Sequence record: NZ_CP110908.1
Origin: a plasmid
DNA: 64,000 nt
Reading direction: 5' to 3' (one strand)
Shown: positions 11,349 to 31,078 of the stretch, in pieces
Layout: every line of letters begins with the position of its first letter
Numbering within the stretch: position 1 is the stretch's first letter
The notes under the pieces: generated by a model
Database searches by the model: none
The model's input: the letters and a program-made list of their open reading frames with translations, nothing else
What the model was told of the DNA's origin: nothing
Made by a program: the position numbers and the translations under genes

Positions 11349-12404
11349 GGGCTTTGTTGAATAAATCGAACTTTTGCTGAGTTGAAGGATCAGATCACGC
11401 ATCCTCCCGACAACACAGACCATTCCGTGGCAAAGCAAAAGTTCATAATCACCAACTGGTCCACCTACAACAAAGCTCTCATCAACCGTGGCTCCCTCAC
11501 TTTCTGGCTGGATGATGAGGCGATTCAGGCCTGGTATGAGTCGGCAACGCCTTCATCACGAGGAAGGCCCCAGCGCTATTCTGATCTCGCCATCACCACC
11601 GTTCTGGTGATTAAACGCGTATTCCGGCTGACCCAGCGGGCTGCGCAGGGTTTTATTGATCCCATTTTTGCCCTGATGAACGTTCCGTTGCGCTGCCCGG
11701 ATTACACCAGTGTCAGTAAGCGGGCAAAGTCGGTTAATGTCAGTTTCAAAACGTCCACCCGGGGTGAAATCGCACACCTGGTGATTGATTCCACCGGGCT
11801 GAAGGTCTTTGGTGAAGGCGAATGGAAAGTCAGAAAGCACGGCAAAGAGCGCCGTCGTATCTGGCGAAAGTTGCATCTTGCTGTTGACAGCAACACACAT
11901 GAAGTTGTCTGTGCAGACCTGTCGCTGAATAACGTCACGGACTCAGAAGCCTTCCCGGGCCTTATCCGGCAGACTCACAGAAAAATCAGGGCAGCCGCGG
12001 CAGACGGGGCTTACGATACCCGGCTCTGTCACGATGAACTGCGCCGCAAAAAATCAGCGCGCTGATTCCTCCCCGAAAAGGAGCAGGTTACTGGCCCGGT
12101 GAGTACGCAGACCGCAACCGTGCCGTTGCTAATCAGCGGCTGAGCGGAAGCAATGCACGGTGGAAATGGACAACGGAATATAACCGTCGCTCGATAGCGG
12201 AAACGGCAATGTACAGAATGAAGCAGTTGTTGGGAGATTCACTGACGCTGCGTGACTACGATGGTCAGGTAGCGGAAGCTATGGCCATGGTGCGTGCGTT
12301 GAACAGGATGACAAAGGCTGGGATGCCAGAAAGCGTGCGTATTGCCTGAAAATCCAGCCAGCTACAGGGTCGTTCGCACGAAATCTTATTTATTCAACAA
12401 AGCC
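11349..12404 (+). mobile_element. IS903-like insertion sequence (IS5 family, IS903 group), about 1056 bp
   Basis: The terminal inverted repeats GGCTTTGTTGAATAAATCG (11349-11367) and its complement (12386-12404) flank an IS903-type transposase. No 9-bp target duplication is seen (flanks are aattgtacg and catcggcac). Confidence 0.85.
11382..12358 (+). pseudogene. IS903-type DDE transposase, frameshifted in an A-run near 12056
   Basis: The first 227 aa match the IS903 transposase. The frame breaks at ...RRKK|SAR*. The downstream frame continues ISALIPPRKGAGYWPGEYADRNRAVANQR...MPESVRIA to 12358. The A-run has 6 A where an intact IS903 has 7 (recalled from memory). Confidence 0.7.
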
Positions 12405-12579
12405 CATCGGCACCCATCTGGTTTACCTGGTGGCGATCAAAAATATCATCCTGAGCCAAGAGGGACACGGCCTGATTTACTTTAAGCGCAGATTTCATCC
12501 GGTGTTAATTGAACAAGAAATAACCGTTTAATACCCCTTCGCCAGTCGAATTTCGGCTGGCGCTTATTTGTTTTCCACT

Positions 12580-12730
12580 CTCTGAAATTGAAACAATCAC
12601 TATCAGAAACTAATGTCCAATATACGCTTTTGCCCCCCCCCACCAGAGTTAATAGTCTTTCGGACTTTTCCCCTTTTTCAGAGCTGATTTCTGAAATTTG
12701 AAATGACACAATCTGCAAATTAATGTAATC
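12580..12730. repeat. Two ~36-bp imperfect direct repeats upstream of the capsule region 1 (TCTGAAATTGAAACAATCACTATCAGAAACTAATGT and TCTGAAATTTGAAATGACACAATCTGCAAATTAATGT)
   Basis: Found by direct comparison in the AT-rich, noncoding leader before the lipoprotein/kpsD genes. A C9 homopolymer (12633-12641) lies between them. Confidence 0.45.
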
Positions 12731-13015
12731 TTCGCCACACAAAAACACTTTCATGAATAATAAAAAACGATTTAGTTGTTTACTGAATAGTTTTTTATGG
12801 CAGCATCCTAAAGCAAATTGAACACTTTCTAACCGGAATCGTCATTTTCCGTGCGGTAGCCTACCTTTTTTTTGCCCTTTATTGCTTCATTTCCTCAGCT
12901 ATGCGCCTCTGCTCCCTGGCCTTCGGGTCAACTTTTTGGGCAATATAAACAGTCGGGTACCTACGAATTTTTATATTCACACGCCAGGTTCCGAATACAT
13001 GGAAAATATTTACAA

Positions 13016-13390
13016 ATGAAGAACGCAACTCGCCTTCTGGTGATTTCGCTCGCCCTCATCCTGAGTGGCTGTGCATATTCCCCGAAGCAGGTTGAAGCCT
13101 CAAGACCGCTTGTAAATCAAGCCGCTTCGACCGATCTCCACGCTATGGCAGCTAACCTGCAACAACCTCTGAACACCCTGCCGCAGGGCGCTACTCTTAG
13201 CGCCAATGGCACCACCTTTACCCTGGGTCAGCGCTATGTCTCTGCCCTGGGGCTGGAATGCATTGAACTGCTGCGTAACCGTAACTACAACCAGTCGCAG
13301 TGCGGCGTGACCTGCAAGAACGGTGATACCTGGTATCTGATACCGCAACTGGAACAGGCATCTGCCAGCAACTTGCTTGCCGTTCAATAA
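13016..13390 (+). CDS. Small lipoprotein of unknown function preceding kpsD
   Basis: Signal peptide plus lipobox (MKNATRLLVISLALILSGC). 124 aa from the internal Met. Its stop lies 2 bp before the kpsD start. Confidence 0.55.
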   Translation: MKNATRLLVISLALILSGCAYSPKQVEASRPLVNQAASTDLHAMAANLQQPLNTLPQGATLSANGTTFTLGQRYVSALGLECIELLRNRNYNQSQCGVTCKNGDTWYLIPQLEQASASNLLAVQ

Positions 13391-13392
13391 TT

Positions 13393-15171
13393 TTGAAGAG
13401 AAATGTTGTGAAGATAACGAAATTTCGGCAATTGAGTGCCATTCTGCTGCTGGCCTGCGCCTCTTGCGCTGCCATTGCCGCCCCTTCTAAGGAAGATGCT
13501 CAGGCCTTTGGAATGAACACTCCGGCAGATACCGGCGACGGCCGACTGCAACTCGGCGGTGATCAGGCGATGAGCGGTCAGGCGAACACCTCCTCTACCA
13601 CCGGGACTTTTACGCAGCAAAACCGCCAGGGCATGTTACTGCCGGGCGAGTCCGACGTGCGTAAATTACTCCCGCAGTCCGAGTCCGGTCTGCCCCCTCC
13701 TTACGGTGCCAACCTGTTTGCCGGTGGCTATGAAACCGAGCGCAGCGACGGTCTGACTGATAATTACCTGATCGCTCCCGGCGATAAGCTGAATATCTGG
13801 ATCTGGGGCGCAGTCAATTTCTCCAACGTCGTCACCGTTGATAATCAGGGTAATATTTTCATCCCTGATGTCGGGCCGATTAATGTAAAAAACGTAGCAG
13901 CAAGTAAAGTCAATAACTTAGTCACCAGCCACATCAGTGAAGTATTTACCAATAACGTTAATGTTTACGTAAATTTACTTACGGCAACGCCGGTCAGCGT
14001 ATTTGTGACCGGCCCGGTGATCCGTCCGGGGCAATATGCCGGCCAGTCTTCCGACAGCGTGCTCTATTTCCTGAAACGCGCAGGCGGTATCGACTCCGAT
14101 CGCGGCAGCTACCGTCATATTAAGGTGTTGCGTCAGAACCGGGTCATTCAACAGATCGACCTGTACGAGTTTATGCAGCAGGGCAAAATGCCGAAGCTGG
14201 CGCTGAAGGATCAGGACGTGATCCTGGTTGAACCGCAGGGGCCGATGATCAACGTGGCCGGTAAAGTGCGTAACCCGTTCCGCTTCGAGTTAAAGAACAG
14301 CAGCGCGCTGGGCTCCGAGCTTATCGATTACGCTCTGCCGCTCGCGAAGGTGAGCCACGTGGGCGTGATTGGCGATCGCGCCAGCGGCCCGTTCTCGGTC
14401 TATATGCCATATAAAGATTTTGATCGCATTCAGCTGAGCGACGGCGACAAAGTGCTGTTCAACGACGATATGCATGCCCAGGTTTACGACGTTCAGGTGA
14501 TGGGCAGCTACCGTGGGCCATCTTACTTCACCGTGCGTAAAGAGACCCGACTGCACGATCTGCTTAACCATATTCCGATTGACCCGAACATGGCAGATTA
14601 CGGCTCGATCTACATCATGCGTAAGAGCGTGGCCGCGCGGCAGAAAGAGATGCTGGAAGACTCCCTGAACCGCCTGGAGCGCAGCGTGTTTACCGCGCCA
14701 GCAAATTCCGACGGTGAGGCTTCCATTCGTACCAAAGAAGCCGAGCTGGTAATGCGCTTCGTGGAAAAAGCCCGCAAGATCCAGCCGCTGGGGAAAGTGG
14801 TGGTGTCGGATAAGGGCGTGATTGCCAACATCCTGCTGGAACAGGGCGACCAGATTGTGATCCCGAACAAGACCGACCTGATTCAGGTGGGTGGCGAAGT
14901 GATGATGCCGCAGGCGGTGGTCTACAACAAAAGCGCCACCCTGGAAGACTATGTGGCCTGGGCGGGCGGCTTTACCGATCGTGCAAACGATAAGCGTATT
15001 GCCGTGGTACATGCCAACGGGCTGATGGAGTTTAAAGACGGCGGTGATGTGATGGCAGGCGATCAGATTCTGGTCATGCCGAAAGTGGACAGCAAAATGA
15101 TGCAGTCCATCAAAGATATTACCCAGGTCATCTATCAGGTTGCCGTGGCGGCCAACGTGGTCCTGAATTAA
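13393..15171 (+). CDS. kpsD: KpsD-like periplasmic capsule polysaccharide export protein (Wza/OPX superfamily)
   Basis: 592-aa ORF with an N-terminal signal peptide and a polysaccharide-export (Poly_export/SLBB) region (LIAPGDKLNIWIWGAVNFSNVVTVDNQGNIFIPDVGPI). First gene of a kpsDMTE block as in group 3 capsules. Start is TTG at 13393 or GTG at 13408. Confidence 0.8.
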   Translation: MKRNVVKITKFRQLSAILLLACASCAAIAAPSKEDAQAFGMNTPADTGDGRLQLGGDQAMSGQANTSSTTGTFTQQNRQGMLLPGESDVRKLLPQSESGLPPPYGANLFAGGYETERSDGLTDNYLIAPGDKLNIWIWGAVNFSNVVTVDNQGNIFIPDVGPINVKNVAASKVNNLVTSHISEVFTNNVNVYVNLLTATPVSVFVTGPVIRPGQYAGQSSDSVLYFLKRAGGIDSDRGSYRHIKVLRQNRVIQQIDLYEFMQQGKMPKLALKDQDVILVEPQGPMINVAGKVRNPFRFELKNSSALGSELIDYALPLAKVSHVGVIGDRASGPFSVYMPYKDFDRIQLSDGDKVLFNDDMHAQVYDVQVMGSYRGPSYFTVRKETRLHDLLNHIPIDPNMADYGSIYIMRKSVAARQKEMLEDSLNRLERSVFTAPANSDGEASIRTKEAELVMRFVEKARKIQPLGKVVVSDKGVIANILLEQGDQIVIPNKTDLIQVGGEVMMPQAVVYNKSATLEDYVAWAGGFTDRANDKRIAVVHANGLMEFKDGGDVMAGDQILVMPKVDSKMMQSIKDITQVIYQVAVAANVVLN

Positions 15172-15225
15172 CCCTTATAGCGGGCTCGCCTCATCGCGGG
15201 CCCGTTCTGTTATATCGGCCTTCTC

Positions 15226-16026
15226 ATGCTTAAACCTGTTCTCAATCAAACGCCCCGCAGCTCGTTCCAGGTGCTGCGCGATGTAACGTTTGGCCTGCTT
15301 ATACGTGAACTGAAAACACGATTTGGGAGTTACCGACTGGGGTATGCCTGGGCGCTGTTGGATCCGTTGTTGATGATTGGTCTGTTTAGTGCGATTTTCG
15401 GGATGCGTGGACACAGTGGTTTTGGTGGCGCGCCTGCACCGCTCTTTATTACTGCGGGCTATCTGCCATTTATCTTTTTTAAGAATGTGGTAAGCAAGCT
15501 GCAATCGGCAGTCAATGCTAACAAAGGGTTGTTTTGCTATCGGCAAGTGACACCTTTCTCCACTTTTATCGCCCGGTTTATCCTTGAAACCATTGTTGGC
15601 ATGATCGTCGGCGGCATTCTTATCCTGGGATTATTATGGTTTGGGTTTGATGCCGTACCAGCTGACCCGCTGAAAATCATTCTTATCTATATGCTGTTTA
15701 TGGTTTTTTCGTTCTCATTGGGCGTCGTCTTTTGCATTACGGGCAACTTAGTTAACGAGGCCGAAAAATTCCTCGGTTTGTTAATGATGCCGTTAATGTT
15801 TATCTCCTGCGTTATGTATCCCCTGGCAAGTATCCCGTCACTGTATCAACACTGGTTTTTATGGAATCCCCTGGTACACGCCCTTGAGCTAATACGCTCT
15901 GGCTGGATTGCCGGCTACGCCAGCCCGAACGCCAGTTGGACTTATCTGTTTGGGGTGACACTGGTACTGCTAACGTTTGCTATGAGTAGCTATCGCCTGA
16001 GCCATCGCCGACTGATTGCCAGCTAA
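15226..16026 (+). CDS. kpsM: KpsM ABC-2-type capsule export permease
   Basis: 266 aa, six TM segments, ABC-2 signature (LLIRELKTRFGSYRLGYAWALLDP). Confidence 0.9.
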   Translation: MLKPVLNQTPRSSFQVLRDVTFGLLIRELKTRFGSYRLGYAWALLDPLLMIGLFSAIFGMRGHSGFGGAPAPLFITAGYLPFIFFKNVVSKLQSAVNANKGLFCYRQVTPFSTFIARFILETIVGMIVGGILILGLLWFGFDAVPADPLKIILIYMLFMVFSFSLGVVFCITGNLVNEAEKFLGLLMMPLMFISCVMYPLASIPSLYQHWFLWNPLVHALELIRSGWIAGYASPNASWTYLFGVTLVLLTFAMSSYRLSHRRLIAS

Positions 16027-16036
16027 GGGGGATAGC

Positions 16037-16687
16037 ATGATTGTTCTGGAAAACGTCTCTAAATATTACCCCACCAAATTTGGCCGCAATTATGTTTTGC
16101 GTGATGTAAACATTACTCTCCCTCGCGATCGCAACATCGGTATTTTGGGTGTTAACGGGGCAGGAAAATCTACCCTTCTTCGCCTTCTAGGCGGCATGGA
16201 TATGCCTAATAAAGGCAAGGTCACCCGCCACTGCCGTGTCTCGTGGCCCCTTGCCTTGAATGGAGGTTTCCAAGGAAGCATGACCGGACGAGAAAACACC
16301 CGCTTTGTTTGCCGTATTCATGGAGTAAGGGATACGCAAGCTATTGAGGAGTGGGTAAAAGAGTTCTCGGAAATCGGCCAGCACTATGAGTTGCCGATTA
16401 AAGGCTACTCTAGCGGGATGAGATCGAAATTTTCTTTTGCTGTAAGTATGGCCTTTGATTTTGATATCTATCTTACTGACGAAATCATGTCTGTTGGCGA
16501 TGCCCGATTTAAGCAGAAATGTATAGATACTTTTAACCAAAAACGCGAGACAGCCAGCCTGATCATGGTTTCACATGATATGAAGAACCTGCGCCAACAA
16601 TGCGATATGGGGATTTTGCTGCGCAACAGTGCTCTTGAGGTGTTCGATAATATCGACGACGCCATCCGCATTTATCAAAGTTTGTAA
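16037..16687 (+). CDS. kpsT: KpsT capsule export ATP-binding protein
   Basis: Walker A is GVNGAGKST and the ABC signature is YSSGMRSK. RBS AAGGGGGA precedes the ATG at 16037; the ORF track starts at 16016. Confidence 0.9.
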   Translation: MIVLENVSKYYPTKFGRNYVLRDVNITLPRDRNIGILGVNGAGKSTLLRLLGGMDMPNKGKVTRHCRVSWPLALNGGFQGSMTGRENTRFVCRIHGVRDTQAIEEWVKEFSEIGQHYELPIKGYSSGMRSKFSFAVSMAFDFDIYLTDEIMSVGDARFKQKCIDTFNQKRETASLIMVSHDMKNLRQQCDMGILLRNSALEVFDNIDDAIRIYQSL

Positions 16688-16702
16688 TCAACCGATAAAA
16701 TC

Positions 16703-17905
16703 ATGACCCAACCAATTCGTTCTAACAAAGCATCAGGAATGATGCGTAAGCTGCGCAAGTTAAAAACTAAACCAAAACATTTTATTGTCGACTCCAGTGG
16801 ATTCCGTCTTGCTCAGCAATCATGGAAACAGAGCCTTAAACTCGGCAGTTTCATGTGGGTAGTAGCCTTTTTTTCCATTGCCGTAGTCTATTTTGGTTTC
16901 ATCGCTTCGGATCGTTATGTAAGCCGGGCGCAGCTAGTCATTAAACAAGCTGACCAAATAAAAATGTTGCCTGACGCACTGTCAATGCTGGGCATTGGTG
17001 GAAGTAATCACGAAGATGTATTGCTGGTTCAAGACTATCTGAACTCTCCAGATATGCTTGCAAAACTGGATAAAGAGTTGGGTCTGAAAGCACATTATCA
17101 AAGTCATGATATAGATTATTTCTCTCGGTTATCAGGTGATGTAAGCCAGGAGGATTTCCTCAAATATTATCGGGATCATTTGTCATTGCGTCTCGATGAC
17201 CTCTCAGGTGTGCTTACAGTGGAACTGCAAGCATTTGATCCTGCTTATGGTCAACGCGTGGTGAACCTGATGCTTAAAGAGTCAGAGGGTTTCATCAATA
17301 AACTCGGACATCAGGTAGCACTGGAACAACTGGCCTTCGTCGAAAAAGAGGTCGATCGTGCTTATCAGCGTGTACAGGATGAAAAAGCGAAGGTTCTTGA
17401 TTTTCAGAACCAACATAATCTGATTAGCCCCGAATCGACCAGTACTGCCCGTCTGGGTGTGGTCAGCCAGATCGAAAGCGAACTGGCAAGCCAGCAGGCG
17501 CAGCTGAAACAGCTGCAGAGTTATATGAAGGACACGGCGCCTGCTGTCATTTCTATTAAGGCCAGAGTGGAGGCTTTAACTGAGCAACTGGCCCAGGAAA
17601 AAGCCAGACTTACTGGCACGGATCAAAATGCAATGAATGAAGTGACCGCTCGCTATATGGATATTCAGACTCAGGCTACTCTGGCCGTCGATCTTTATAA
17701 AAGCGGTCTTATCAGCCTGGAACAAGCTCGGGTTGAGGCGTACCGCAAGCTTAAACACTTGCTTGTTGTGAGCCAGCCAACGATTGCACAAGATGCAGAG
17801 TACCCACGACGCCTCTATAACCTTGCAACAATCGGTGTACTTCTTTGTCTACTGTATGGATTAATCGTGATGGGACTCGCGACACTTCGTGAACATCAGG
17901 ATTAA
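16703..17905 (+). CDS. kpsE: KpsE capsule export inner-membrane (PCP-3 family) protein
   Basis: 400 aa with an N-terminal TM segment, a long coiled-coil periplasmic region and a C-terminal TM, as expected of KpsE. Follows kpsMT. Confidence 0.85.
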   Translation: MTQPIRSNKASGMMRKLRKLKTKPKHFIVDSSGFRLAQQSWKQSLKLGSFMWVVAFFSIAVVYFGFIASDRYVSRAQLVIKQADQIKMLPDALSMLGIGGSNHEDVLLVQDYLNSPDMLAKLDKELGLKAHYQSHDIDYFSRLSGDVSQEDFLKYYRDHLSLRLDDLSGVLTVELQAFDPAYGQRVVNLMLKESEGFINKLGHQVALEQLAFVEKEVDRAYQRVQDEKAKVLDFQNQHNLISPESTSTARLGVVSQIESELASQQAQLKQLQSYMKDTAPAVISIKARVEALTEQLAQEKARLTGTDQNAMNEVTARYMDIQTQATLAVDLYKSGLISLEQARVEAYRKLKHLLVVSQPTIAQDAEYPRRLYNLATIGVLLCLLYGLIVMGLATLREHQD

Positions 17906-17979
17906 AAAAATATCTAAAATAATTGTTTCTTTATTTTTTGCATAACAATTGTGTTACAAAGTTAGGTAATGACTCCAAC

Positions 17980-18492
17980 TTATTGATAGTGTTTTATGTT
18001 CAGATAATGCCCGATGACTTTGTCATGCAGCTCCACCGATTTTGAGAACGACAGCGACTTCCGTCCCAGCCGTGCCAGGTGCTGCCTCAGATTCAGGTTA
18101 TGCCGCTCAATTCGCTGCGTATATCGCTTGCTGATTACGTGCAGCTTTCCCTTCAGGCGGGATTCATACAGCGGCCAGCCATCCGTCATCCATATCACCA
18201 CGTCAAAGGGTGACAGCAGGCTCATAAGACGCCCCAGCGTCGCCATAGTGCGTTCACCGAATACGTGCGCAACAACCGTCTTCCGGAGACTGTCATACGC
18301 GTAAAACAGCCAGCGCTGGCGCGATTTAGCCCCGACATAGCCCCACTGTTCGTCCATTTCCGCGCAGACGATGACGTCACTGCCCGGCTGTATGCGCGAG
18401 GTTACCGACTGCGGCCTGAGTTTTTTAAGTGACGTAAAATCGTGTTGAGGCCAACGCCCATAATGCGGGCAGTTGCCCGGCATCCAACGCAT
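17980..18492 (-). CDS. insB: IS1 InsB (expressed as the InsAB' frameshift fusion)
   Basis: ...[47 protein letters not shown]... is the canonical InsB. Confidence 0.9.
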
Positions 18493-18676
18493 TCATGGCC
18501 ATATCAATGATTTTCTGGTGCGTACCGGGTTGAGAAGCGGTGTAAGTGAACTGCAGTTGCCATGTTTTACGGCAGTGAGAGCAGAGATAGCGCTGATGTC
18601 CGGCGGTGCTTTTGCCGTTACGCACCACCCCGTCAGTAGCTGAACAGGAGGGACAGCTGATAGAAACAGAAGCCAC
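18425..18676 (-). CDS. insA: IS1 InsA
   Basis: [40 protein letters not shown]... is the canonical IS1 InsA. Confidence 0.9.
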
Positions 18677-18841
18677 TGGAGCACCTCAAAAACACCATCA
18701 TACACTAAATCAGTAAGTTGGCAGCATCACCCAAAGTTAGCTTGGTATATTTTCTAATACCAGCAAAAAGACTTCACATTACAATTCGTGGGAGAGTCTT
18801 TTTCCCACAATCTCTTCCATCATCCTTAAAATTTTACAGCT

Positions 18842-19948
18842 ATGCGAAAACTAAAAAAATTTTTTAGGCATCCTGGAATTTTTGTTCGGGATCATTTGAA
18901 TAAGAAATATCCAGTCATTCGTAATGAGATCGCATGCTCTGCGGATGAAGAACATATTTTAATTCGTCATGACCTCGAAATGGAGGCTCAGATCAAAATT
19001 GACTTCCCTATTGATGTTGTTTTTACTTGGGTAGATGATTCGGATCCAAAATGGCAAAAACGTTATAATTACTTTAAGCATTCAACAAATAAAGATAGCT
19101 TAGGTGAATATGCAACAGATCCGGCCAGATTTAGTAATCATGATGAGTTAAGGTATTCTCTTCAAAGCGTCTTAAAATTTTTACCTTGGGTTCGGCGAAT
19201 CTATATTGTTACTGATAATCAATGTCCGGAATGGCTCAAAGCAAGTGAAAAAATTAAGATAATTGATCACAATGAAATAATTCAAGAGCAATATTTACCA
19301 ACATTTAATTCTCATGTAATTGAAGCCCATTTACATAAAATTCCTGATTTAGCTGAACACTTTATCTATTTTAACGACGATGTATTCGTTGCAAGACCAC
19401 TTCCCCCAGGCCATTTTTTTAGGAGCAATGGTATTGCATCTTTGTTTATGTCGAAGAAAAGCCTTGCTGTTATGCAAGAAAAAGGCAAAAACACTCCTAC
19501 ACTTTCAGCCTCACTAAGATCAGCATCTATTTTAAATAATAAATTTAGTTTAATCATCGATAATCCTTTAGTACATACATATGTACCACTTCGAAGAACT
19601 ATGTTTGAAGAAGCATGGAAGGTTTACGAATCTGAGCTTTCAACGTTTCTATCTAATAAATTCAGGACGAATGATGACATCAATATGGCAACGTTTTTTG
19701 TACCTTGGTTATGTTATATACGCGGTACGGCTGTACCATCCAGGGATATTTGCTATTACTTCAATGTCAGATCCCCGGCGGCGGCAACATATTTTAAAGC
19801 CCTAGAAGTCGCTAAAAAGAAAGGAACTCTTCCACATTCTTTTTGTGCCAATGATTTTAATACAAAAATAACAGCCAACTCTGATTATAAAGGGTTGCTA
19901 GAATCCGCACTTAAGCAATATTTCGAACACGGTAATAAAAATGATTAA
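18842..19948 (+). CDS. Stealth-family capsule hexose-1-phosphate transferase (SacB/CsaB/XcbA-like)
   Basis: 368 aa with the Stealth conserved regions CR1 ([14 protein letters not shown]), CR2 ([15 protein letters not shown]) and CR3 ([12 protein letters not shown]). About 30% GC. Confidence 0.75.
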
Positions 19949-22900: not shown

Positions 22901-24125
22901 TGATACATCCATATACAATACTTTTAAAAGAAAATATGAAGATTATAAAAACTATTGGAAATTAATCTGCGAAGGAAAAAAAGAGAAAGCGGCTTTAATT
23001 TTAGAAAAAAGGATAGTAACATGTACGCATGATGAGCTTGTAACTATGCAACCGCAACTGTTACTTGCAAATACATATTGCCAGTTAAAACGTTTAACTG
23101 ATGCAAATCAGCAATTATCCAATTTCGAAAAACATACTAACAACTCTCCATTCTGTCGAGAAATAATAGCACAGTTAGCTTATCTTAGAAAAAACTGGAA
23201 TAAAGTTATAGTTCAAGTCAGAACCGCTTATCCAACAATAAATGATACTCCTGAGCCAGTCGTTGTATTAACAATCAAAGCATTACAAAATCAGAAGAAA
23301 GAATTATCTGCTGCGTTAAATAAAGTAACGAAGCCAGAGACAATAATAAGCAAGTCAATATATCTTCGCGATAAAGGTTTGCTTAACCAAGCGCGGTCGC
23401 TATTAACTGATAACCGTAATATATTGATTGAGAATAACAACATTAATAATTATAATATCGAGATAGCTAAAATAGAAATTTTACTTCACAACTGGCAGAA
23501 AGCTCTTTCACATTTAGAGCAGTTAACTAAGCTTGATTATGAAACAGGCATGATGAAATTAAAGTGTCTCGCCGAATTACGTAGACCTAAAGCAATTCGC
23601 CGCGCCTTAAGTGATAGTGAATGGTTCCAAAGCTTGCCACCTTATCAGTATAATTTTGCGGAGTCGCTATTTGAATATTCCAAGGGTAACATCCAAAGGG
23701 CTACAACATTATTAAGCAAAGCATTAATTGAATACCGCCCCGATCTGTTGATCATGCATAAACCTTATTTATGGCTTGCTCGTTGTTTACGTGAATTGGG
23801 GCAACTCGATGCTGCGCATAATGCTCTTCTGGAGCATGAAAAATTATTAAATAATGATCCTCAATGCAGAGAACAAATTGCTCGCTTAGCAATTAACAAT
23901 AATAAGTTGAAAAAAGCCATATTTCAACTTGAAAAGGCATATCCAGATTACTCAAGTTTGCCTTTAGATTTAGCAACTATTTTAATATTTGCATTAAGAA
24001 GTGAAAATAATCACACTCAAGCTGAAAAAGTTATTAAGTCTCTGCCGATTGATTTTGCTTCGAAAATCCCTATTGATACGGAATATTCTTTTGAAAATAT
24101 GTTAAAAGAACCGGCACATTCCTAA
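19941..24125 (+). CDS. Multidomain capsule polymerase: N-terminal GT2 glycosyltransferase + TagF-like CDP-glycerol/polyol-phosphate transferase domain + C-terminal TPR-rich region
   Basis: 1394 aa. The GT-A motifs are [12 protein letters not shown] and FIDPDDF. The Glyphos_transf-type domain is [20 protein letters not shown]...[13 protein letters not shown]...IMPTWRR. About 600 aa of degenerate TPR-like repeats follow. Overlaps the Stealth gene by 8 bp. Confidence 0.7.
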
Positions 24126-24187
24126 ATTATTAAAGTGATGCTAAAAACTTCAACTATTTCAACTCATTACTTAACGGAAATATTTTA

Positions 24188-25927
24188 ATGTCATCTCTTG
24201 ACTCTCTTGGCATTGAGTACAATTTAAAACAATCCTCATTAAAAGATGATTACTTATCCTTTTACGAGCGCGAAATATCATACAGACTTCCTAATAGTTT
24301 TACCCTGCTAATCATAACGAATGAAAAAATAGAAGATGTTGCTTCGGTTTATTCAAAGAAATATCCACTATCAAAAATCATTGTCGCGTCATATGGATAT
24401 GAAAGCTATACAACTTCGTTTTTAGATAATGTGGTTTTCCACGCTTTCATAAATCTAGATGCGCTTATCAATCAGATTTCTTTAATTTATTTTGATGCGG
24501 TTATTGAACATAGCTCTAATCGAAAATCACATAAACTAAAACTGTTTAAGAAACTTTTCTTCAGATTACCAAAAGGAGGGGTTTATTTCATCCAAGAATT
24601 ACATGCTAAGTTTATTTCTGGATTAATCGATTGCGACGGCCCTGACATTCTTGACCTTATAAACGAAGTTTCCCAATTAAAAATATCAAATAATGACAGA
24701 AGAAAAAACGCTGACCCTTATGCCGTAGCACTTGCTGAATGTTGCGAAAGTATATTTATAAAAAGTAAGTTAGGTGTCTTGGTCAAAGGTAAAGCTTCTT
24801 TCAAAAGTTTAAGAAGCAACGAAGCTAAAAACATGATCAACTCTGGTTCATTGAAAGGGAGTATAATTGTATCAAATGATAATGAATTTGAATTTGTACA
24901 TTCAATAACATCTGTTATAACTCCAACTGGTGAGCCATGGCGAAATCCAGCCAAATTTAAAATACCAGAATCGTTTTTAGCTAAATACCAAAGTGTACAT
25001 TGTGATGTTGGACAGATCGCATATATGGATGGATATTTGTTGCCCGATTCCTTTAGAATGCAGCATCACAAAAAACTTACAAATCGTAATATAATCTCTT
25101 TAGTAGCTGATATTTGTTTATTAAAAGATGAAAAACCAGATCCGATTCATCTTGCAGGTGAATACTTTTATCTTGATTCGGAATATCCGGGTCATTTCGG
25201 GCATTTTACTTCTGAGGTAGTTTCAAGACTATGGGCATGGGAAGAGATTAAAACAAGATCTCCTAATGCAAAAGTATTAATTGGGCTTGAAAAAGGAAAA
25301 TCATTGCCAAGTTTTATTGAAACTATATTATCATGTTATCACATTAGTAGAAATGAAATACAAACCTTCGATAGTAGTATCACTGTTGATGTTCTTTATG
25401 CTGCCACTCCTTACTATGCTATCGGCAATCACATAAATCCAAAAATAAAAGATGTTTGGGAGAGAATTGGTGAGAGTACTAATGATGGTATTTCCGGGAT
25501 TATTGGCAATCGATTATTTATTTCTAGACCTGAAGGCGGGGAAAGAAAATGTCTAAATGCTGAAAAACTAGAACGTATATTCTTTGAAAGAGGTTTTGAG
25601 TTTTACAACCCTGAAAAATATTCCTGGAAAGATCAGGTTAAAACATTTTCCAGTGCTGACGTTATTGCTGGCTATGCGGGAAGCGGCACTTTCAACACCA
25701 TGTTTGCTAAAGGTTCTAAAAAAATATTTATCATTGGTTCAGACTCATATACTGCAACAAACGAGCATTATATCTGCGCCATTAAAGGTTATGATTTAAA
25801 TTATTACCTTGGTGATTCATTAGTAAAACATGGCAATGTATTTTCACTAAAAGCATTTAAATCTGATTATAACTTTAATTATGAACGAGATGAAGAATCA
25901 CTCATTGATGCATTAAGTAAAATATAA
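24188..25927 (+). CDS. Putative glycosyltransferase, GT61/DUF563-like capsular polysaccharide biosynthesis protein
   Basis: 579 aa. The C-terminal half has the EYPGHFGHFTSEVVSRLWAW and RLFISRPEGGERKCLNAEKLERIFFERGF motifs typical of the DUF563/GT61 family. The N-terminal ~280 aa show no recognisable domain. Confidence 0.5.
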   Translation: MSSLDSLGIEYNLKQSSLKDDYLSFYEREISYRLPNSFTLLIITNEKIEDVASVYSKKYPLSKIIVASYGYESYTTSFLDNVVFHAFINLDALINQISLIYFDAVIEHSSNRKSHKLKLFKKLFFRLPKGGVYFIQELHAKFISGLIDCDGPDILDLINEVSQLKISNNDRRKNADPYAVALAECCESIFIKSKLGVLVKGKASFKSLRSNEAKNMINSGSLKGSIIVSNDNEFEFVHSITSVITPTGEPWRNPAKFKIPESFLAKYQSVHCDVGQIAYMDGYLLPDSFRMQHHKKLTNRNIISLVADICLLKDEKPDPIHLAGEYFYLDSEYPGHFGHFTSEVVSRLWAWEEIKTRSPNAKVLIGLEKGKSLPSFIETILSCYHISRNEIQTFDSSITVDVLYAATPYYAIGNHINPKIKDVWERIGESTNDGISGIIGNRLFISRPEGGERKCLNAEKLERIFFERGFEFYNPEKYSWKDQVKTFSSADVIAGYAGSGTFNTMFAKGSKKIFIIGSDSYTATNEHYICAIKGYDLNYYLGDSLVKHGNVFSLKAFKSDYNFNYERDEESLIDALSKI

Positions 25928-26035
25928 CCTATATTGGGTTGTTTTTTAAGTGCTATAATCTTCTCAAAGTCTGATGTAGCCCCCTGAAACACCGGACAGT
26001 AGCTGTATCTCCAGATAAGAGACAGGCTTGAATAT

Positions 26036-26431
26036 ATGTCTAACACTAACGCCAATTTTGAGATGACCGGGATCCTGTTAGGGCAAGAAGTCCGTAAACG
26101 TAAAACTCCTCAGGAGAAGATCGCCATTATCCAGCAGACGATGGAGCCGGGTATGAATGTCTCCCATGTCGCCCGCCTGCATGGTATCCAGCCCAGCCTG
26201 CTGTTTAAGTGGAAGAAGCAATATCAGGAAGGCAGCCTCACCGCCGTTGCGGCTGGAGAGGAAGTCGTTCCTGCTTCTGAGCTTACTGCTGCTCTGAAGC
26301 AGGTCCGGGAGCTTCAGCGCCTTCTGGGCAAGAAGACGATGGAAGTTGAGATCCTGAAAGAAGCCGTGGAGTACGGTCAGTCGCGAAAATGGATAGCGCA
26401 CGCGCCCTTGTTGCCAAAGGACGGGGAATAG
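26036..26431 (+). CDS. IS2-like transposase OrfA (HTH)
   Basis: [50 protein letters not shown]... is about 80% similar to IS2 InsC. Confidence 0.85.
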
Positions 26432-27270
26432 CCATGGTCTGCCGGACCATGGGCGTGTCGCGTGCGCAACTGTCACTGCGGATTAACCGTTCTGCCGACT
26501 GGCAGGACAGGCGCTGTAACCGGCGTAATGAAGAAGCAGACGCAGAAATACTGTCGGCTATCCTCAACATTATCAGCGATATGCCGAGTTATGGTTATCG
26601 ACGCGTGTGGGGCATCCTGCGCAAGCAACGTCGCACAGAGGGACAGCTACCTGTGAATGCCAAACGGCTTTACAGGATAATGCGTGAGCATAACCTGTTG
26701 TTGTTGCATCACAAACCAGAGCGACCGAAGCGTGAACATAAGGGCAAGATAGCGGTGGCAGAAAGCGATATGCGCTGGTGTTCAGATGGCTTCGAGTTCG
26801 GCTGCGACAACGGCGAAAAACTGCGGGTAACGTTCGCGCTGGACTGCTGCGACCGTGAGGCCATAGACTGGGCAGCAAGCACGGGAGGCTATGACAGTTC
26901 GACCGTGCAGGATGTGATGCTGAGGTCGGTGGAAAAGCGCTTCGGCGACAGGTTGCCCGACACAGCGGTGCAGTGGCTGACGGATAACGGTTCAGCGTAT
27001 ACCGCGTATGAAACGCGGAGGTTCGCGAGAGAGCTGAATCTGGAGCCCTGCACAACAGCGGTGAGCAGCCCGCAGAGTAATGGCATGGCCGAACGGTTCG
27101 TGAAAACGATGAAAGAAGACTATATCGCGTTCATGCCAAAACCGGATGTGAGAACAGCACTGCGAAACCTTGCAGTAGCGTTCACGCATTACAATGAAAA
27201 CCACCCGCACAGCGCGCTGGGATATCACTCCCCGAGGGAATACCGGCGGCAGCGGACATCGTTAACTTAA
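26389..27270 (+). CDS. IS2-like transposase OrfB (DDE integrase domain), made by -1 frameshift with OrfA
   Basis: [38 protein letters not shown]...[19 protein letters not shown] is IS2 InsD-like. Confidence 0.85.
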
Positions 27271-27357
27271 GATACAAAAGCTGTTCGGAGATGGAGGGTC
27301 AAGATCAAATCTTCTCAAAGTCACTCATTGAAAAAAACAATTAGAGCATAGTTCGAC

Positions 27358-27657
27358 GTGGCGGTGGATATCCGTAAAAGCTCCCCGACCTTTGGTCAGT
27401 GGGTGGGCGTGCATCTGTCTGGCGAGAACAAGCGTCAGCTGTGGATCCCGGAAGGTTTCGCCCACGGCTTTATGACCCTGAGCGACACCGCAGAGTTCCT
27501 GTACAAAACCACCAACTACTATGCGCCGGAGAGCGACCGTGGCATCCGCTGGAACGATGAGACCATTGCGATTACATGGCCGGAAATCGACAGCGAGATC
27601 CTCACCTCCGCCAAAGACAGCGTTGCCAAATCCTTCCCTGACGCAGAGTACTTCTGA
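27358..27657 (+). pseudogene. rmlC: 3' remnant of rmlC/rfbC (dTDP-4-dehydrorhamnose 3,5-epimerase)
   Basis: The 99-aa frame VDIRKSSPTFGQWVGVHLSGENKRQLWIPEGFAHGFMTLSDTAEFLYKTTNYYAPESDRGIRWND... matches the C-terminal half of RmlC. No N-terminal half and no start codon are present. Confidence 0.8.
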
Positions 27658-27692
27658 GTCACACGCCCCGCAGTGACGCGGGGCGTTTTCTG

Positions 27693-29711
27693 ATGCACAG
27701 AGCGCACATGAAATTCTATACAGGTTCAGCCGGGATCCTGGCCCGAAAGGCACAGCTCGAGCCGATGCTGGGTCACCCGTTACACGCCTTCAAATCCAGC
27801 ATGCAGCTGGCGCAGGACGATGTACTGGTCGGCTGGGGCCAAAAAGCTAATACCCGCCAAATAAAACAAAAAGCCCAGGACCTCGGCCTGCCGTACTGGC
27901 AGCTGGAAGATGGCTTTATCGGTTATATTGGCCACCCCGCCAGAGGGGGCAAGGCCGTCTCCCTGATCGCAGATCCTGTGGGCATTTACTACGACGCTCG
28001 CCAGCCCAGCCGCCTTGAGCAGCTGATCGCCACCCCGTGCGATACCATGCTGCTGGCGCGGGCTGAAGCGCTGACCAGCGAACTGCTGCGTCTTGGCATC
28101 ACCAAGTACAATTGCTATGCCGCGGGCAGCGCTCTACCCGACGCGCTGGCCGCCCGCCTGCACAGCGACGCCCGTCCTAAGGTGCTACTGATCGACCAGG
28201 TTGCGGGGGATCTCTCCATTCCCGGCGCGCTCGCCAGCGAGGCGGATTTTGTTGAAATGGTTGCCGCTGCGCGGCGTAACCACCCCGGCGCCCGCCTGCT
28301 GCTGCGTACCCATCCGGATACCCGGCTGGGCAAGAAGCGCGGCGTGCTGGCGCAGATGCAGCTGGATGACGTGGAAAGGGTCACCGATCACTGCCATCCT
28401 CATGCCCTGCTGAATGAGGTGGAAGCAGTCTATACCGTCTCCTCGCAGATGGGGTTTGAAGCCCTGCTGCTGGGCAAAGCGGTCTGGTGCTTCGGCATGC
28501 CGTTTTACGCCGGCTGGGGATTGACCCATGACAGCAAATCCTGCCCGCGTCGCCAGGCGCAGATTAGCCTGCCGCAGCTGGTGGCAGCGGCGCTGATCCT
28601 CTATCCCCGCTATCTGGATCCGGTGCTGGGCCAGCGCTGCGAAGTGGAGCAGGTGCTTGAGGTCATTGCGGATCAGCTGAATCCGGCCCCGCGCTATCGC
28701 CGTCTGTATATGGTGGGCTTCTCGCTGTGGAAACGCGCCTTTATGCGCGCCTTCTGTCAGCCGCTGGCTGAGGAGCTGCGCTTTGTGCGCACCCCGCCCA
28801 AACGGCTGGCCGCTGACGAGCAGGTGCTGGTGTGGGGCAGTCGTTATCCCGAACTGGCAAACGCAATTCGGGTGGAGGATGGTTTTATCCGCTCCCGGGG
28901 ACTGGGCTCGAACCTGTGCCGCCCTTCCTCGCTCTCCATCGACCCGGTGGGGATCTACTTCGACAGCCGCCATCCGAGCGGGCTGGAGCAGTTGCTCAAC
29001 CAGCAGCAGCTCAGCGAACAGGCGCTGGAACGCGGCGCCGCGCTGGTGGACATGCTCCGCCAGCATGGGGTCAGCAAGTATAACGTCGGCACCGTGCAGC
29101 CGTTCACCGCGCCGGCCGACGGGCGAGCGCTGGTGCTGGTGGTGGGCCAGGTCGATGGCGATGCCTCGATCCTCACCGGCAGCCCGGTCATTCGCAGCAA
29201 TGAACAGCTGCTGTGGGCCGTGCGTGCCGCCCGGCCAGAAGCGCATATCCTGTTTAAACCGCATCCGGACGTGGTGGCGGGAAACCGGGCCGGTGCCATC
29301 TCGGCCGAATGCCTGGCGCGCTGCGTTGACAGCCAGGTGCTGGATCTCGGTCTCACCAGTCTCTATCCCCATGTGGATGAGCTGCATACCATGACCTCCC
29401 TCAGCGGGTTCGAAGCGCTGGTGCAGGGAGTGAAGGTCGCTACATGGGGCCAGCCGTTCTACAGCGGCTGGGGGCTGACCGAAGATATCCACCCGGCGGA
29501 GCGCCGTCAGCGCACCCTGCCCCTGGCGGCACTGGTTTACCTGACGCTGGTCGCCTATCCGCGCTATATCGACTGGCAGAGTGGCCTGTGGATGAGCCCG
29601 GAACAACTGATCCGCCAGCTGGCAGCGCAGGGAAACTCCTCATCGCAGAAGGCCAGCCGCTGGCAGCGCTGGCAGATCAAGCTGAGCTATCTGGCACAAA
29701 CATTTCGTTAG
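27693..29711 (+). CDS. kpsC: KpsC capsule biosynthesis protein (tandem beta-Kdo transferase domains)
   Basis: 672 aa with two repeated Capsule_synth-type halves (GWGQKANT...GLPYWQLEDGFI and VWGSRYPELANAIRVEDGFIRS). The antisense 473-aa ORF at 28185-29606 is an artefact of the high GC content. Confidence 0.9.
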   Translation: MHRAHMKFYTGSAGILARKAQLEPMLGHPLHAFKSSMQLAQDDVLVGWGQKANTRQIKQKAQDLGLPYWQLEDGFIGYIGHPARGGKAVSLIADPVGIYYDARQPSRLEQLIATPCDTMLLARAEALTSELLRLGITKYNCYAAGSALPDALAARLHSDARPKVLLIDQVAGDLSIPGALASEADFVEMVAAARRNHPGARLLLRTHPDTRLGKKRGVLAQMQLDDVERVTDHCHPHALLNEVEAVYTVSSQMGFEALLLGKAVWCFGMPFYAGWGLTHDSKSCPRRQAQISLPQLVAAALILYPRYLDPVLGQRCEVEQVLEVIADQLNPAPRYRRLYMVGFSLWKRAFMRAFCQPLAEELRFVRTPPKRLAADEQVLVWGSRYPELANAIRVEDGFIRSRGLGSNLCRPSSLSIDPVGIYFDSRHPSGLEQLLNQQQLSEQALERGAALVDMLRQHGVSKYNVGTVQPFTAPADGRALVLVVGQVDGDASILTGSPVIRSNEQLLWAVRAARPEAHILFKPHPDVVAGNRAGAISAECLARCVDSQVLDLGLTSLYPHVDELHTMTSLSGFEALVQGVKVATWGQPFYSGWGLTEDIHPAERRQRTLPLAALVYLTLVAYPRYIDWQSGLWMSPEQLIRQLAAQGNSSSQKASRWQRWQIKLSYLAQTFR

Positions 29712-29800
29712 CACACTATTTATCCCGATTTATTAAAGAAAAACGGTCATCAAGCCGTTAACTCACCTGTCTCATCAACGGAACCGATCTGGGAAAAAAA

Positions 29801-31045
29801 ATGGAAGAGCAAGCTATCCGCCATCTGCTGAATGGCCGCCGATATCTTTTATTACAAGGACCGATGGGCCCCTGCTTTTCACGTCTGGCAAGCTGGTTGC
29901 AGAGCAGCAAGCGTGAAGTGAAGCAGGTCTGCTTTAATGCCGGGGACTCATGGTATGCCGCGAAAGAGACCGCGCTGCACTACACCGGCTCAGTAAAAAA
30001 TTTTGCCTTCTGGCTGCGCGAGTTACATAAAACCTACCCCTTCGACACCATCGTCTGTTTTGGTGACTGTCGCCCGATGCATATCGAAGCGAAGAAGTGG
30101 GCGCGCAGCAAATCCATCGACTTCCTGGCATTTGAAGAGGGCTATTTCCGTCCCTTCTACATCACCCTGGAAAAAGGGGGCGTGAATGCCTTCTCCTCGA
30201 TGCCCATTGATGCGAAGTATTATCGCGAGCAGCCGCTGCCGGAGCTGAAAACCCCAACGCCGTGGAAACCGAGTTCCTTTAACCGTGCCGCCCATGCCAT
30301 GCTCTACTATGCGGCGGGCTGGTTTGGCCGCCATCGCTACCGGGGCTACCGCCACCACAAGTCGTTCTCCCCGTGGTATGAGATGCGCTGCTGGTTCCGC
30401 GCCGGTCGCCGTAAGCTGTGGTATCGCTGGCAGCAGCGCCACATGCTGAGCCATATCACTGAAAAACTGGATAACCAGTACTACCTGGCAATTTTGCAGG
30501 TCTACAACGACAGCCAGATTATTCATCACAGCCCGTATAAAGACGTGCGTGACTATATTGAAACCGTGATCCGCTCCTTTGCCCGCCATGCGTCGAAAGA
30601 GCGCTATCTGGTGTTCAAGCATCACCCGATGGATCGTGGTCACCGTTTTTACGGCATCCTGATTAACAAGCTGACCGAAAAGTATGACGTCAGCGGCCGG
30701 GTGCTCTATGTCCACGATCTCTCCCTGCCCGCCCTACTGACCCACACCCGGGGCGTGATCACCGTGAACAGCACCGCCGGCCTGTCGGCGCTGATCCATA
30801 ACAAGCCGCTCAAGGTGATGGGCAAAGCGCTGTACGACATCGAAGGGTTAACCTGGCAGGGGCCGCTGAACCAGTTCTGGCAGGCGGATTTTGCTCCAGA
30901 TGCAAAACTGTTCCAGCGTTTTCGTACCCACCTGCTCTATCAAACGCAGATCAACGCCGTCTTTTACGGCAAGTCCGACTGGCTGAACATCCCGACAGAA
31001 ATTCCCCTGACGACACCGCTTGCCGATTCCGAGCTCGAACGCTAA
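29801..31045 (+). CDS. kpsS: KpsS capsule biosynthesis protein (Kdo linker transferase)
   Basis: 414 aa, MEEQAIRHLLNGRRYLLLQGPMGPCFSRLASWL..., Capsule_synth family. Follows kpsC as in kps region 3/1. Confidence 0.9.
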   Translation: MEEQAIRHLLNGRRYLLLQGPMGPCFSRLASWLQSSKREVKQVCFNAGDSWYAAKETALHYTGSVKNFAFWLRELHKTYPFDTIVCFGDCRPMHIEAKKWARSKSIDFLAFEEGYFRPFYITLEKGGVNAFSSMPIDAKYYREQPLPELKTPTPWKPSSFNRAAHAMLYYAAGWFGRHRYRGYRHHKSFSPWYEMRCWFRAGRRKLWYRWQQRHMLSHITEKLDNQYYLAILQVYNDSQIIHHSPYKDVRDYIETVIRSFARHASKERYLVFKHHPMDRGHRFYGILINKLTEKYDVSGRVLYVHDLSLPALLTHTRGVITVNSTAGLSALIHNKPLKVMGKALYDIEGLTWQGPLNQFWQADFAPDAKLFQRFRTHLLYQTQINAVFYGKSDWLNIPTEIPLTTPLADSELER

Positions 31046-31054
31046 TTCATCTCC

Positions 31055-31078
31055 ACGCCGGGGAAATTGCCCCGGCGG
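31055..31078 (+). terminator. GC-rich hairpin after kpsS (gccgggg-aaattg-ccccggc)
   Basis: 7-bp perfect stem 10 bp after the kpsS stop. No T-run follows. Confidence 0.3.

Follow-up and report, generated by a model that had tools for sequence, protein, structure and literature searches.

Positions 12405 to 31153 of a 64,000-nucleotide stretch of plasmid DNA (sequence record NZ_CP110908.1; the whole stretch is referred to as the window) hold an island of capsule genes. With good confidence, this island can be read as a plasmid-borne kps capsule island of subgroup 3B that depends on an ATP-binding cassette (ABC) transporter, with the mechanism and history proposed below. It is organized as export genes (region 1), serotype genes (region 2) and genes for a linker of Kdo (3-deoxy-D-manno-octulosonate), interspersed with insertion sequences (IS) and gene remnants. 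The features of the island are as follows.

12405-12530, + strand: 3' fragment of hpaC (last 41 codons) at the left island edge, cut at 12404/5 by an IS903-like element
12849-12865, + strand: ops-like element CCGTGCGGTAGCCTACC, candidate RfaH-loading site 5' of region 1
13016-13390, + strand: lipoprotein gene (124 amino acids, aa), first gene of region 1, with signal peptide and lipobox LSGC
13570-15171, + strand: kpsD, outer-membrane/periplasmic polysaccharide export protein with Poly_export and SLBB domains
15226-16026, + strand: kpsM, ABC-2 permease with an ABC2_membrane domain
16037-16687, + strand: kpsT, ABC ATPase with an ABC_tran domain, 90-97% aa identical to its 3B relatives
16703-17905, + strand: kpsE, inner-membrane/periplasmic adaptor (TIGR01010 BexC/CtrB/KpsE, 451.6 bits, above the 437.5 cut-off)
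17965-18731, - strand: IS1 between kpsE and the Stealth gene, 99.6% identical to the IS1 copies of loci L002 and L005
18842-19948, + strand: Stealth-family protein of the CslA/Cps1A type (368 aa, 1107-bp gene)
19941-24125, + strand: capsule polymerase (1394 aa) with GT-A (GT2), TagF-like and C-terminal TPR parts
24188-25927, + strand: two-domain protein (579 aa) with an N-terminal methyltransferase-like fold and a C-terminal GT61 domain
25972-27307, + strand: IS2-like element of the IS3 family (1336 bp), 44 nt 3' of the GT61 stop, with HTH_Tnp_1 and rve reading frames
27352-27657, + strand: 3' remnant of rmlC (rfbC), matching dTDP_sugar_isom profile positions 80-166 of 168
27708-29711, + strand: kpsC, by family the beta-Kdo transferase building the poly-Kdo linker (Capsule_synth, four stretches, 1.2e-72)
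29801-31045, + strand: kpsS, by family the initiating beta-Kdo transferase (Capsule_synth, 1.9e-89)

The gene order lipoprotein-kpsD-kpsM-kpsT-kpsE / Stealth-polymerase-GT61 / kpsC-kpsS, all on the + strand, was obtained from the map of open reading frames (ORFs) and the family matches. All ten genes listed in an earlier reading of the window, made from the letters alone (hereafter the sequence-only reading), were found intact on that strand. Neither kpsF nor kpsU was present among the ORFs of 12405-31153, every one of which is accounted for, and the group 3 order claimed in that reading, with region 2 between kpsE and kpsC and without kpsF/kpsU, was confirmed. Its low-GC centre of about 30%, unlike the flanks, was borne out as well, region 2 measuring 32.6% GC against 50.2% for region 1 and 59.8% for kpsCS.

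A comparison with group 2 and group 3 reference clusters, which had been set beforehand as a check, came out as predicted, with 3B ahead of 3A and group 2 far behind. Against complete E. coli genomes, kpsD-kpsE was 84-92% identical over the full length, mostly to plasmids, which form the 3B tier; identity to the chromosomal classical group 3 clusters (now 3A) was about 70.5%, colinear and full length, and alignment to group 2 clusters was limited to about 150 nt of kpsT. In a PLSDB search, region 1 was 83-89% identical to plasmids CP058198, CP058169, CP011590 and MN423365, from Enterobacter, Leclercia and E. coli, which are listed as 3B or 3B-like in Table 1 of Hong et al. 2023 (PMC10433991); the 2026 kTYPr catalogue (PMC13171606) likewise recognizes 3B clusters carried on plasmids. 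Judged by nucleotide identity, the locus is thus a member of an already published class, plasmid-borne group 3B, because its best region 1 matches are plasmids of the Hong et al. list, and "3B" is the precise label. The sequence-only reading had missed that this class exists. The current picture of group 3B capsules is unchanged by the locus.

What sets the island apart is region 2. Megablast of region 2 against 5,426 complete E. coli genomes gave no match, and in PLSDB it was found on this one plasmid only. Among species-representative genomes, no close relative was found with the polymerase as query, and the Stealth query returned 80 loci, none with this polymerase or GT61 protein at high identity. 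The Stealth/polymerase/GT61 locus is a K-locus variant not described before, within the 3B kps clusters and with a region 2 of the Cps1A/B type. The ratio of nonsynonymous to synonymous substitution rates (dN/dS) was 0.08-0.16 for the Stealth, polymerase and GT61 genes compared with their nearest relatives.

The export and linker genes resemble those of other 3B clusters. The lipoprotein gave no match in family searches, and it is 84-99% identical, at the same position, in 3B clusters L002, L005, L009, L010 and L013. KpsD is 100% aa identical to that of L010. KpsM matched the NCBIfam KpsM model weakly (144 bits, under the 300-bit cut-off) and KpsS matched its NCBIfam model at 388 bits, under the 600-bit equivalog cut-off, while being 100% aa identical to KpsS of L003. 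The ops-like element CCGTGCGGTAGCCTACC lies about 165 nt upstream of the lipoprotein ATG, is followed by a T-run and is one base off the canonical GGCGGTAG; it is invariant in all eight aligned 3B relatives, whereas the rest of the leader is variable. An exact search of the window for GGCGGTAG gave one match, at chance level, inside kpsS and on the wrong strand.

The three families of region 2 were as given in the sequence-only reading: a Stealth protein, a GT2 + TagF-like + TPR protein and a GT61 protein. For the 1394-aa polymerase, Pfam matches were found to Glycos_transf_2 at 43-181 (3.5e-25) and, in the hidden Markov model (HMM) search for Glyphos_transf that had been proposed there, to PF04464 at 487-852 (4.7e-35), followed by ANAPC3, TPR_19 and TPR_14 matches at 1248-1333. 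The residues D131-P-D133-D134, H589 (FLQHG motif) and H717 (PH) are invariant in 16 polymerase homologues of 41-69% identity. A whole-polymerase phmmer search against the PDB returned GT-A matches only, to inverting beta-glycosyltransferases including K4CP, and a profile of the TagF-like domain was needed to reach TarL (1e-13), TagF (2.7e-09) and Cps3D (4.9e-06). In the profile alignment H717 aligns with the catalytic H584 of TagF, and H589 was assigned as the counterpart of the second catalytic histidine (TagF H444) by motif and spacing alone. The numbering of these motifs nearly equals that of the residues tested in Cps1B, namely D133/D135, H587 and H717 (PMC5974469).

Litschko et al. 2018 predict the polymer class from domain architecture (PMC5974469). 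GT-A/TagF-like enzymes (CslB, Cps12B, Cps1B and Ccs2) transfer hexose-1-phosphate from sugars activated with uridine diphosphate (UDP) and make poly(oligosaccharide phosphate), while poly(glycosyl-glycerol-phosphate) is the product of the TagF-like/GT-B enzymes (Cps3D, Cps7D and others), which have a cytidylyltransferase gene alongside (PMC5974469). From such family knowledge, the predicted product here is a poly(oligosaccharide-1-phosphate) capsule with no polyol-phosphate, because the architecture is GT-A/TagF-like and no gene for making glycerol or ribitol activated with cytidine diphosphate (CDP) lies in the island or its close relatives. The phosphodiester-linked polymer expected in the sequence-only reading is a reasonable prediction from the polymerase class. 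That reading had gone further and proposed a teichoic-acid-like polymer containing polyol-phosphate, in which the TagF-like domain would use a CDP-polyol and the Stealth protein would add sugar-1-phosphate. In its favour, the Pfam name of the central domain is CDP-glycerol:poly(glycerophosphate) glycerophosphotransferase (at the E-value given above), the domain profile matches the teichoic acid polymerases TarL and TagF, and the capsules of E. coli K2 and several Actinobacillus and Neisseria strains are glycerol-phosphate polymers of TagF-like enzymes (PMC5974469). However, the architecture here is GT-A/TagF-like/TPR, and cytidylyltransferase, CDP-glycerol or CDP-ribitol synthesis and LicD-like genes were absent from the island and from close relatives L006-L013, so that a polyol-phosphate polymer is improbable.

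In the HMM search for the four conserved regions of Stealth proteins, CR1, CR2 and CR3 scored above the Pfam cut-offs and CR4 gave no Pfam match even at E = 5. The protein matches CpsY (8j2n, 7.7e-47) and the GNPTAB catalytic domain, and the alignment with CpsY extends to an FCxND stretch at residues 333-340. In size and position it resembles CslA, whose gene is 1101 bp (~366 aa), is annotated "capsule phosphotransferase" and lies directly 5' of cslB (PMC3647402), and likewise Cps1A, whose gene was named a Stealth gene by Sperisen et al. (PMC1285062).

The Stealth and polymerase genes share an overlap of 8 nt. Of the 37 Stealth-anchored loci compared (L014-L050, from Aeromonas, Rahnella, Ewingella, Kluyvera, Chromobacterium, Neisseria and Haemophilus), 27 have their best polymerase match starting about 1.1 kb downstream of the Stealth start. 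Across 3B clusters the Stealth protein is 77-92% identical and the adjacent polymerase 26-92%. Between Rahnella and the window, identity is 66% for Stealth, 60% for KpsS, 46% for KpsT, 44% for KpsC, 39% for KpsM and 39% for the polymerase, which makes Stealth the best-conserved protein of the locus between kps lineages. These comparisons indicate that Stealth is probably a conserved partner of the polymerase and not a second serotype enzyme, a point that the sequence-only reading had missed.

Purified CslB, Cps12B, Cps1B and Ccs2 alone make authentic polymers without a Stealth partner (PMC5974469). Stealth is therefore unlikely to set the repeat unit, since polymerases of this type suffice. 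By analogy with these systems, its most likely role would be that of a priming (transition) hexose-1-phosphate transferase acting between poly-Kdo and the polymer, once per chain, and CslA and Cps1A are listed as candidate transition transferases by Litschko et al. 2024 (PMC11666461). A single phosphodiester link between poly-Kdo and polymer would explain both the top conservation of Stealth across kps lineages and its coupling to the GT-A/TagF-like polymerase, and the conservation pattern is a useful argument for examining it as a primer enzyme rather than a polymerase.

Alternatively, Stealth could act as a co-polymerase, in which case the Stealth protein and the TagF-like domain would form two phosphodiester bonds per repeat and the polymer would be more complex than the Cps1B/CslB type. 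This is suggested by the Stealth proteins CsaB and CsxA, which are bona fide hexose-1-phosphate polymerases (PMC5974469, PMC1285062), by the strong catalytic-domain homology to CpsY and by the deletion of cps1A, which abolished the virulence of A. pleuropneumoniae in pigs (PMC1285062). But the sufficiency of CslB, Cps12B, Cps1B and Ccs2 argues against it, as does the fact that Stealth is the least variable component among serotype variants, unlike a serotype enzyme. The protein is also short, like CslA, whereas csxA is 1,461 bp (~486 aa) (PMC3647402). A co-polymerase is accordingly considered quite unlikely, and the priming role is preferred.

The third protein of region 2 carries a GT61 domain (Pfam PF04577 at 337-509, 1.7e-19, above the cut-off) and an additional N-terminal domain that the sequence-only reading had missed. 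The AlphaFold2 model of the 579-aa protein, with 38 homologues in the input, had a predicted local distance difference test score (pLDDT) of 93.3. In Foldseek searches the N-terminal domain matched the sugar O-methyltransferases MycE/SpnK over about 225 residues (4.5e-09), and the C-terminal domain matched POMGNT2 (GT61), with a GT-B-type fold (E ~3e-08). The glycine-rich S-adenosylmethionine (SAM) loop was absent in all 38 homologues, which have T-NEK or equivalents after strand 1 and no GxG. An active O-methyltransferase is thus unsupported, and because of the missing loop the domain is labelled methyltransferase-like only.

Full-length homologues of this protein occur in 3B clusters immediately 5' of rmlBDAC, including a chromosomal cluster of Leclercia adecarboxylata (64% identity). 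Lone homologues (49-54% identity) were found in Atlantibacter hermannii and Rahnella prophages, next to genes for tailspikes (Peptidase_S74, Tail_spike_N), at positions 10001-11740 of L099 and L100 and 10001-11734 of L101, and Atlantibacter and Rahnella also hold Stealth-polymerase capsule loci. A place beside the tailspike genes of a prophage is the usual position of a seroconversion gene. The occurrence of homologues both in 3B clusters before rmlBDAC and as single prophage genes by tailspikes suggests that the GT61 protein is a self-contained decorating enzyme and not a backbone enzyme. L-rhamnose is a possible sugar for it, but the association with rhamnose genes is imperfect. If the prophage reading is true, the methyltransferase-like/GT61 protein could serve as a capsule seroconversion factor, travelling on prophages beside tailspikes. 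Taken together, the proposal that Stealth is the long-sought transition transferase of hexose-phosphate capsules, and that the methyltransferase-like/GT61 protein is a self-contained capsule-decorating enzyme and possible seroconversion factor, is put forward tentatively and remains somewhat doubtful as a whole.

Both insertion sequences placed by the sequence-only reading at the region junctions are present. IS1, said to have an 8-9 bp duplication at the region 1/region 2 junction, is flanked by the 8-bp target duplication CAAAGTTA at 17957-17964 and 18732-18739 (9 bp counting the next G). At the region 2/kpsC junction, the IS2-like element lies with the rmlC 3' remnant. The ends of this element were set from more than 2000 other plasmid copies, which place its start at 25972 and not at the apparent 25963, and on either side of it, at 25957-25971 and 27308-27322, stands the 15-bp direct repeat AATCTTCTCAAAGTC; the counterpart ATTTTTCTCAAAGTC, with two mismatches, is single-copy in L006 and L007. 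In relatives L006-L008 (three Logan contigs whose region 2 is 88-94% identical), both IS sites are empty, and therefore, from sequence comparison, IS1 and the IS2-like element are simple insertions into spacers.

The IS2-like element occurs on more than 2000 PLSDB plasmids, mostly of Klebsiella, and copies on three unrelated plasmids (L094, L095 and L096) have their own 15-16-bp repeats, CTCTTCAATCAGAGTG, ATTGCTTTCAAAAAG and AAGAGCGCTGGCGTG. Duplications of IS3-family elements are usually quoted as 3-5 bp, far shorter than the 15-bp repeat here. A literature search for IS3-family elements with 15-bp duplications gave nothing useful.

The rmlC remnant had been taken to indicate that an ancestral rhamnose-containing region 2 was replaced. 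This was not supported, since L006-L008 carry the same three region 2 genes, then a spacer, then rmlB. The first ~60 nt of the spacer after the GT61 stop are common to the window and L006-L008, after which the window jumps to mid-rmlC, as is typical of an internal deletion. The remnant region shares 87% nt identity with the stretch from rfbC to kpsC in L002, and more distant relatives (L010, L097) have a full rmlBDAC before kpsC. The more likely event, from these alignments, is a deletion of about 3.5 kb covering rmlB, rmlD, rmlA and the 5' part of rmlC in an L006-like ancestor, and the remnant would be its scar because rmlB comes next after the same three genes in close relatives. A recombination origin of the junction is possible, since recombination junctions in 3B clusters are often at rmlC (Hong et al., PMC10433991).

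The left edge of the island points to its source. The translation of the hpaC fragment, IGTHLVYLVAIKNIILSQEGHGLIYFKRRFHPVLIEQEITV*, is identical to the HpaC C-terminus of the chromosomal locus L010, where the same lipoprotein-kps cluster comes after hpaBC; this locus is 97-100% nt identical to window positions 12401-15400. Since this 3' fragment of hpaC is kept at the left edge, the comparison shows, at the level of sequence, that the island was captured from a chromosome, where its site lay between hpaC and a WYL-regulator gene (hpaBC-kps-WYL/cstA). The chromosomal source was probably Leclercia-like; the record of the L097 polymerase is named Leclercia adecarboxylata. Identity to L010 stays at 97-100% to about 15400, inside kpsM (the hpaC fragment, lipoprotein and kpsD side), and then falls to 74-80% (from ~98% to ~77% at the breakpoint), and because of this sharp drop the kps cluster is a recombinant.

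The IS903-like element cut the island at hpaC; later, IS1 and the IS2-like element entered intergenic spacers, and rmlBDA with the 5' part of rmlC were probably lost by deletion. At the other end, window positions 27813-31158 are 98.9% nt identical to remnants of kpsCS enclosed by IS1 copies on IncFIB/FII plasmids of Klebsiella and Enterobacter, plasmids that have backbone genes in common with the source plasmid of the window, pCF1807-2. The hpaC fragment and the kpsM breakpoint thus trace chromosomal capsule loci, probably of Leclercia, onto IncF-type plasmids, followed by decay.

Two related plasmids were also noted. L003 (E. kobei pEC1382-2) has kpsCS between IS1 copies together with an Asp2-like fragment, and on L004 (a Citrobacter sp. 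CRE-46 plasmid) IS5 and ISEc33 enclose a Stealth gene together with a polymerase truncated to 1067 aa. Both are IncFIB/FII plasmids with pCF1807-2 backbone genes, and they look like successive erosion stages of a plasmid capsule locus.

From the family assignments, the following working of the capsule is proposed. KpsS and KpsC would build a lipid-borne poly-beta-Kdo linker. On it, Stealth, translationally coupled to the polymerase, would prime the chain once. The GT-A domain of the polymerase would then add a beta-linked sugar and the TagF-like domain a hexose-1-phosphate from a UDP-sugar, and these alternating reactions would yield a poly(oligosaccharide-1-phosphate) chain. The GT61 protein would attach one more sugar, possibly L-rhamnose and probably in a side branch, and KpsMT, KpsE and KpsD with the lipoprotein would export the polymer.

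Several points weigh against this account. Pfam did not detect CR4 in Stealth, Kdo di- and trisaccharides were not extended by recombinant CslA or Cps1A in vitro (PMC11666461), and the priming role, argued here by analogy, is hypothetical, being a published hypothesis so far. The donor for the TagF-like domain is not deducible from sequence. As for the GT61 protein, the idea that it is a rhamnosyltransferase since it always precedes rml was weakened by L009, in which no GT61 gene is present and rmlB follows an Asp2-like gene, and rmlBDAC is a general feature of 3B clusters (PMC10433991), so the link between GT61 and rhamnose is weak. Finally, what is expected to be a single transcription unit contains two IS elements and three terminator-like hairpins, and the rml genes are gone.

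Because of these IS elements, the hairpins and the loss of the rml genes, the copy may be silent. The island would then be a decaying relic that makes no capsule, with IS insertions polar on region 2 and kpsCS and with the loss of rmlBDA removing a precursor. Consistent with this, one co-oriented run of genes has the two IS elements in its spacers, strong hairpins lie 3' of kpsD (15179-15206) and, after the rmlC remnant, 5' of kpsC (27663-27686), rmlB, rmlD, rmlA and half of rmlC are deleted, and the sister IncF plasmids hold fragments only (kpsCS in L003; Stealth and a truncated polymerase in L004). Yet all ten genes are full length, with sizes equal to those of their relatives, and no gene is interrupted, as each of the two IS elements is in a spacer and retains its duplication. 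The conserved ops-like element, judged by its sequence, could support RfaH-type read-through past the hairpins that follow kpsD and precede kpsC. Moreover, for the E. coli K12 capsule type it has been proposed that the O-antigen locus supplies rhamnose synthesis (PMC13171606), and by analogy such borrowing could apply here. A relic is regarded as plausible but not probable.

The plasmid location of the island was checked on the full record. The window is the reverse complement of NZ_CP110892.1, the Citrobacter freundii CF1807 plasmid pCF1807-2, with 100% identity over the kps interval. This plasmid is a closed circular record of 211 kb from a urine isolate from Ningbo, so the kps island is plasmid-borne. 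It was typed as IncC + IncFIC, MOBF, MPF_F and conjugative; of the F-plasmid-like background given in the sequence-only reading, the plasmid nature stood and the typing was refined to an IncC/IncFIC hybrid with MOBF and MPF_F. The linkage to plasmid maintenance and resistance genes described there was also found, with ccdAB, vapBC, blaTEM-1 and aac(3)-IId close by. The features around the island are as follows.

7443-7968: ccdAB, left of the kps island
8685-9322: vapBC, left of the kps island
11382-12404, + strand: IS903-like (IS5-family) element at the left island boundary, Pfam DDE_Tnp_1_5 and DDE_Tnp_1
31154-32248, - strand: IS5-like element at the right island boundary, with an ORF at 31305-32108 (-) carrying DDE_Tnp_1 and DUF772
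32396-33256: blaTEM-1, right of the kps island
38231-39088: aac(3)-IId, right of the kps island, on which side IS26 is also found

The limits of the island were set at 12405, where the IS903-like element ends, and 31153, before the IS5-like inverted repeat at 31154. On the left, the IS903-like terminal repeat GGCTTTGTTGAATAAATAAGATTTC (reverse complement) terminates at 12404/12405, and window positions 12001-12404/5 are 99.5% identical to L003 2317-2721 and L004 10842-11247, which are annotated there as IS5-family transposase genes. On the right, the IS5-type terminal repeat GGAAGGTGCGAATAAG begins at 31154, adjoining a CTAA target, and homology to the kps loci L013 (chromosomal) and L003 (plasmid) ends at 31158. 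A composite transposon was rejected for the island because the IS elements at its two ends, IS903-like on the left and IS5-like on the right, are unrelated.

Further genes were observed outside the island. Between vapBC and the IS903-like element, an intact 484-aa ORF (9742-11196) with AAA_21/AAA_15 and OLD-like TOPRIM domains was assigned as an OLD-family nuclease, a possible defence gene that is absent from the PLSDB gene table. Sugar-acid catabolism blocks at about 1100-6150 and 40900-53500 (ltnD/otnK/aldolase/GntP; uxuR-uxaC-uxuA-uidABC) place glucuronide and tetronate utilization genes on both sides of the capsule and resistance regions.

The locus thus puts a complete system for capsule export, along with a K-locus variant not described before, on a conjugative multidrug-resistance plasmid of a urinary C. 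freundii. With capsule and resistance on one conjugative plasmid, one transfer event could move both a surface antigen and resistance.

Compared with the known 3B clusters of E. coli, Enterobacter and Leclercia (K11, TBA_7-10; PMC10433991, PMC13171606), the island has the same gene order, high-GC regions 1 and 3 and location on IncF-type plasmids, with nt identities of 83-92% in region 1 and 85-99% in region 3, and in both the rml block adjoins kpsC with rmlC as the junction. Unlike them, it has a C. freundii host, an IncC/IncFIC hybrid replicon, a deleted rml block, an hpaC fragment marking the chromosomal source and a Stealth/1394-aa polymerase/GT61 region 2 that megablast did not find in complete E. 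coli genomes.

The systems of Cps3D/Cps7D with CpsA/CpsC (A. pleuropneumoniae 3 and 7) and of E. coli K2 resemble it in their TagF-like and TPR domains, their poly-Kdo glycolipid and the need for a separate small enzyme to bridge linker and polymer, and the Cps3D structure gave a weak profile match to the polymerase domain (E-value above). They differ in that here a GT-A domain precedes the TagF-like domain, the TPR part is C-terminal, and glycerol-3-phosphate cytidylyltransferase, TagB-like CpsA and LicD-like CpsC are lacking.

The nearest likeness of region 2 is to Cps1A/Cps1B (A. pleuropneumoniae 1, 4 and 12), CslA/CslB (N. meningitidis L) and Ccs2 (H. influenzae c), in which a short Stealth gene likewise lies directly 5' of a GT-A + TagF-like (+ TPR) polymerase, a third, modifying gene comes next and CDP-polyol genes are lacking. 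In a direct comparison that covered homologues from commensal Neisseria (L032-L049), identity was about 41% for the polymerase and 52-58% for Stealth. The backbone here is group 3B, whereas theirs is the group 2 backbone of Pasteurellaceae and Neisseria, and the third gene here is a methyltransferase-like/GT61 fusion, whereas theirs is an O-acetyltransferase. With Cps1B, the polymerase has in common a DxD motif and two catalytic histidines at nearly the same residue numbers.

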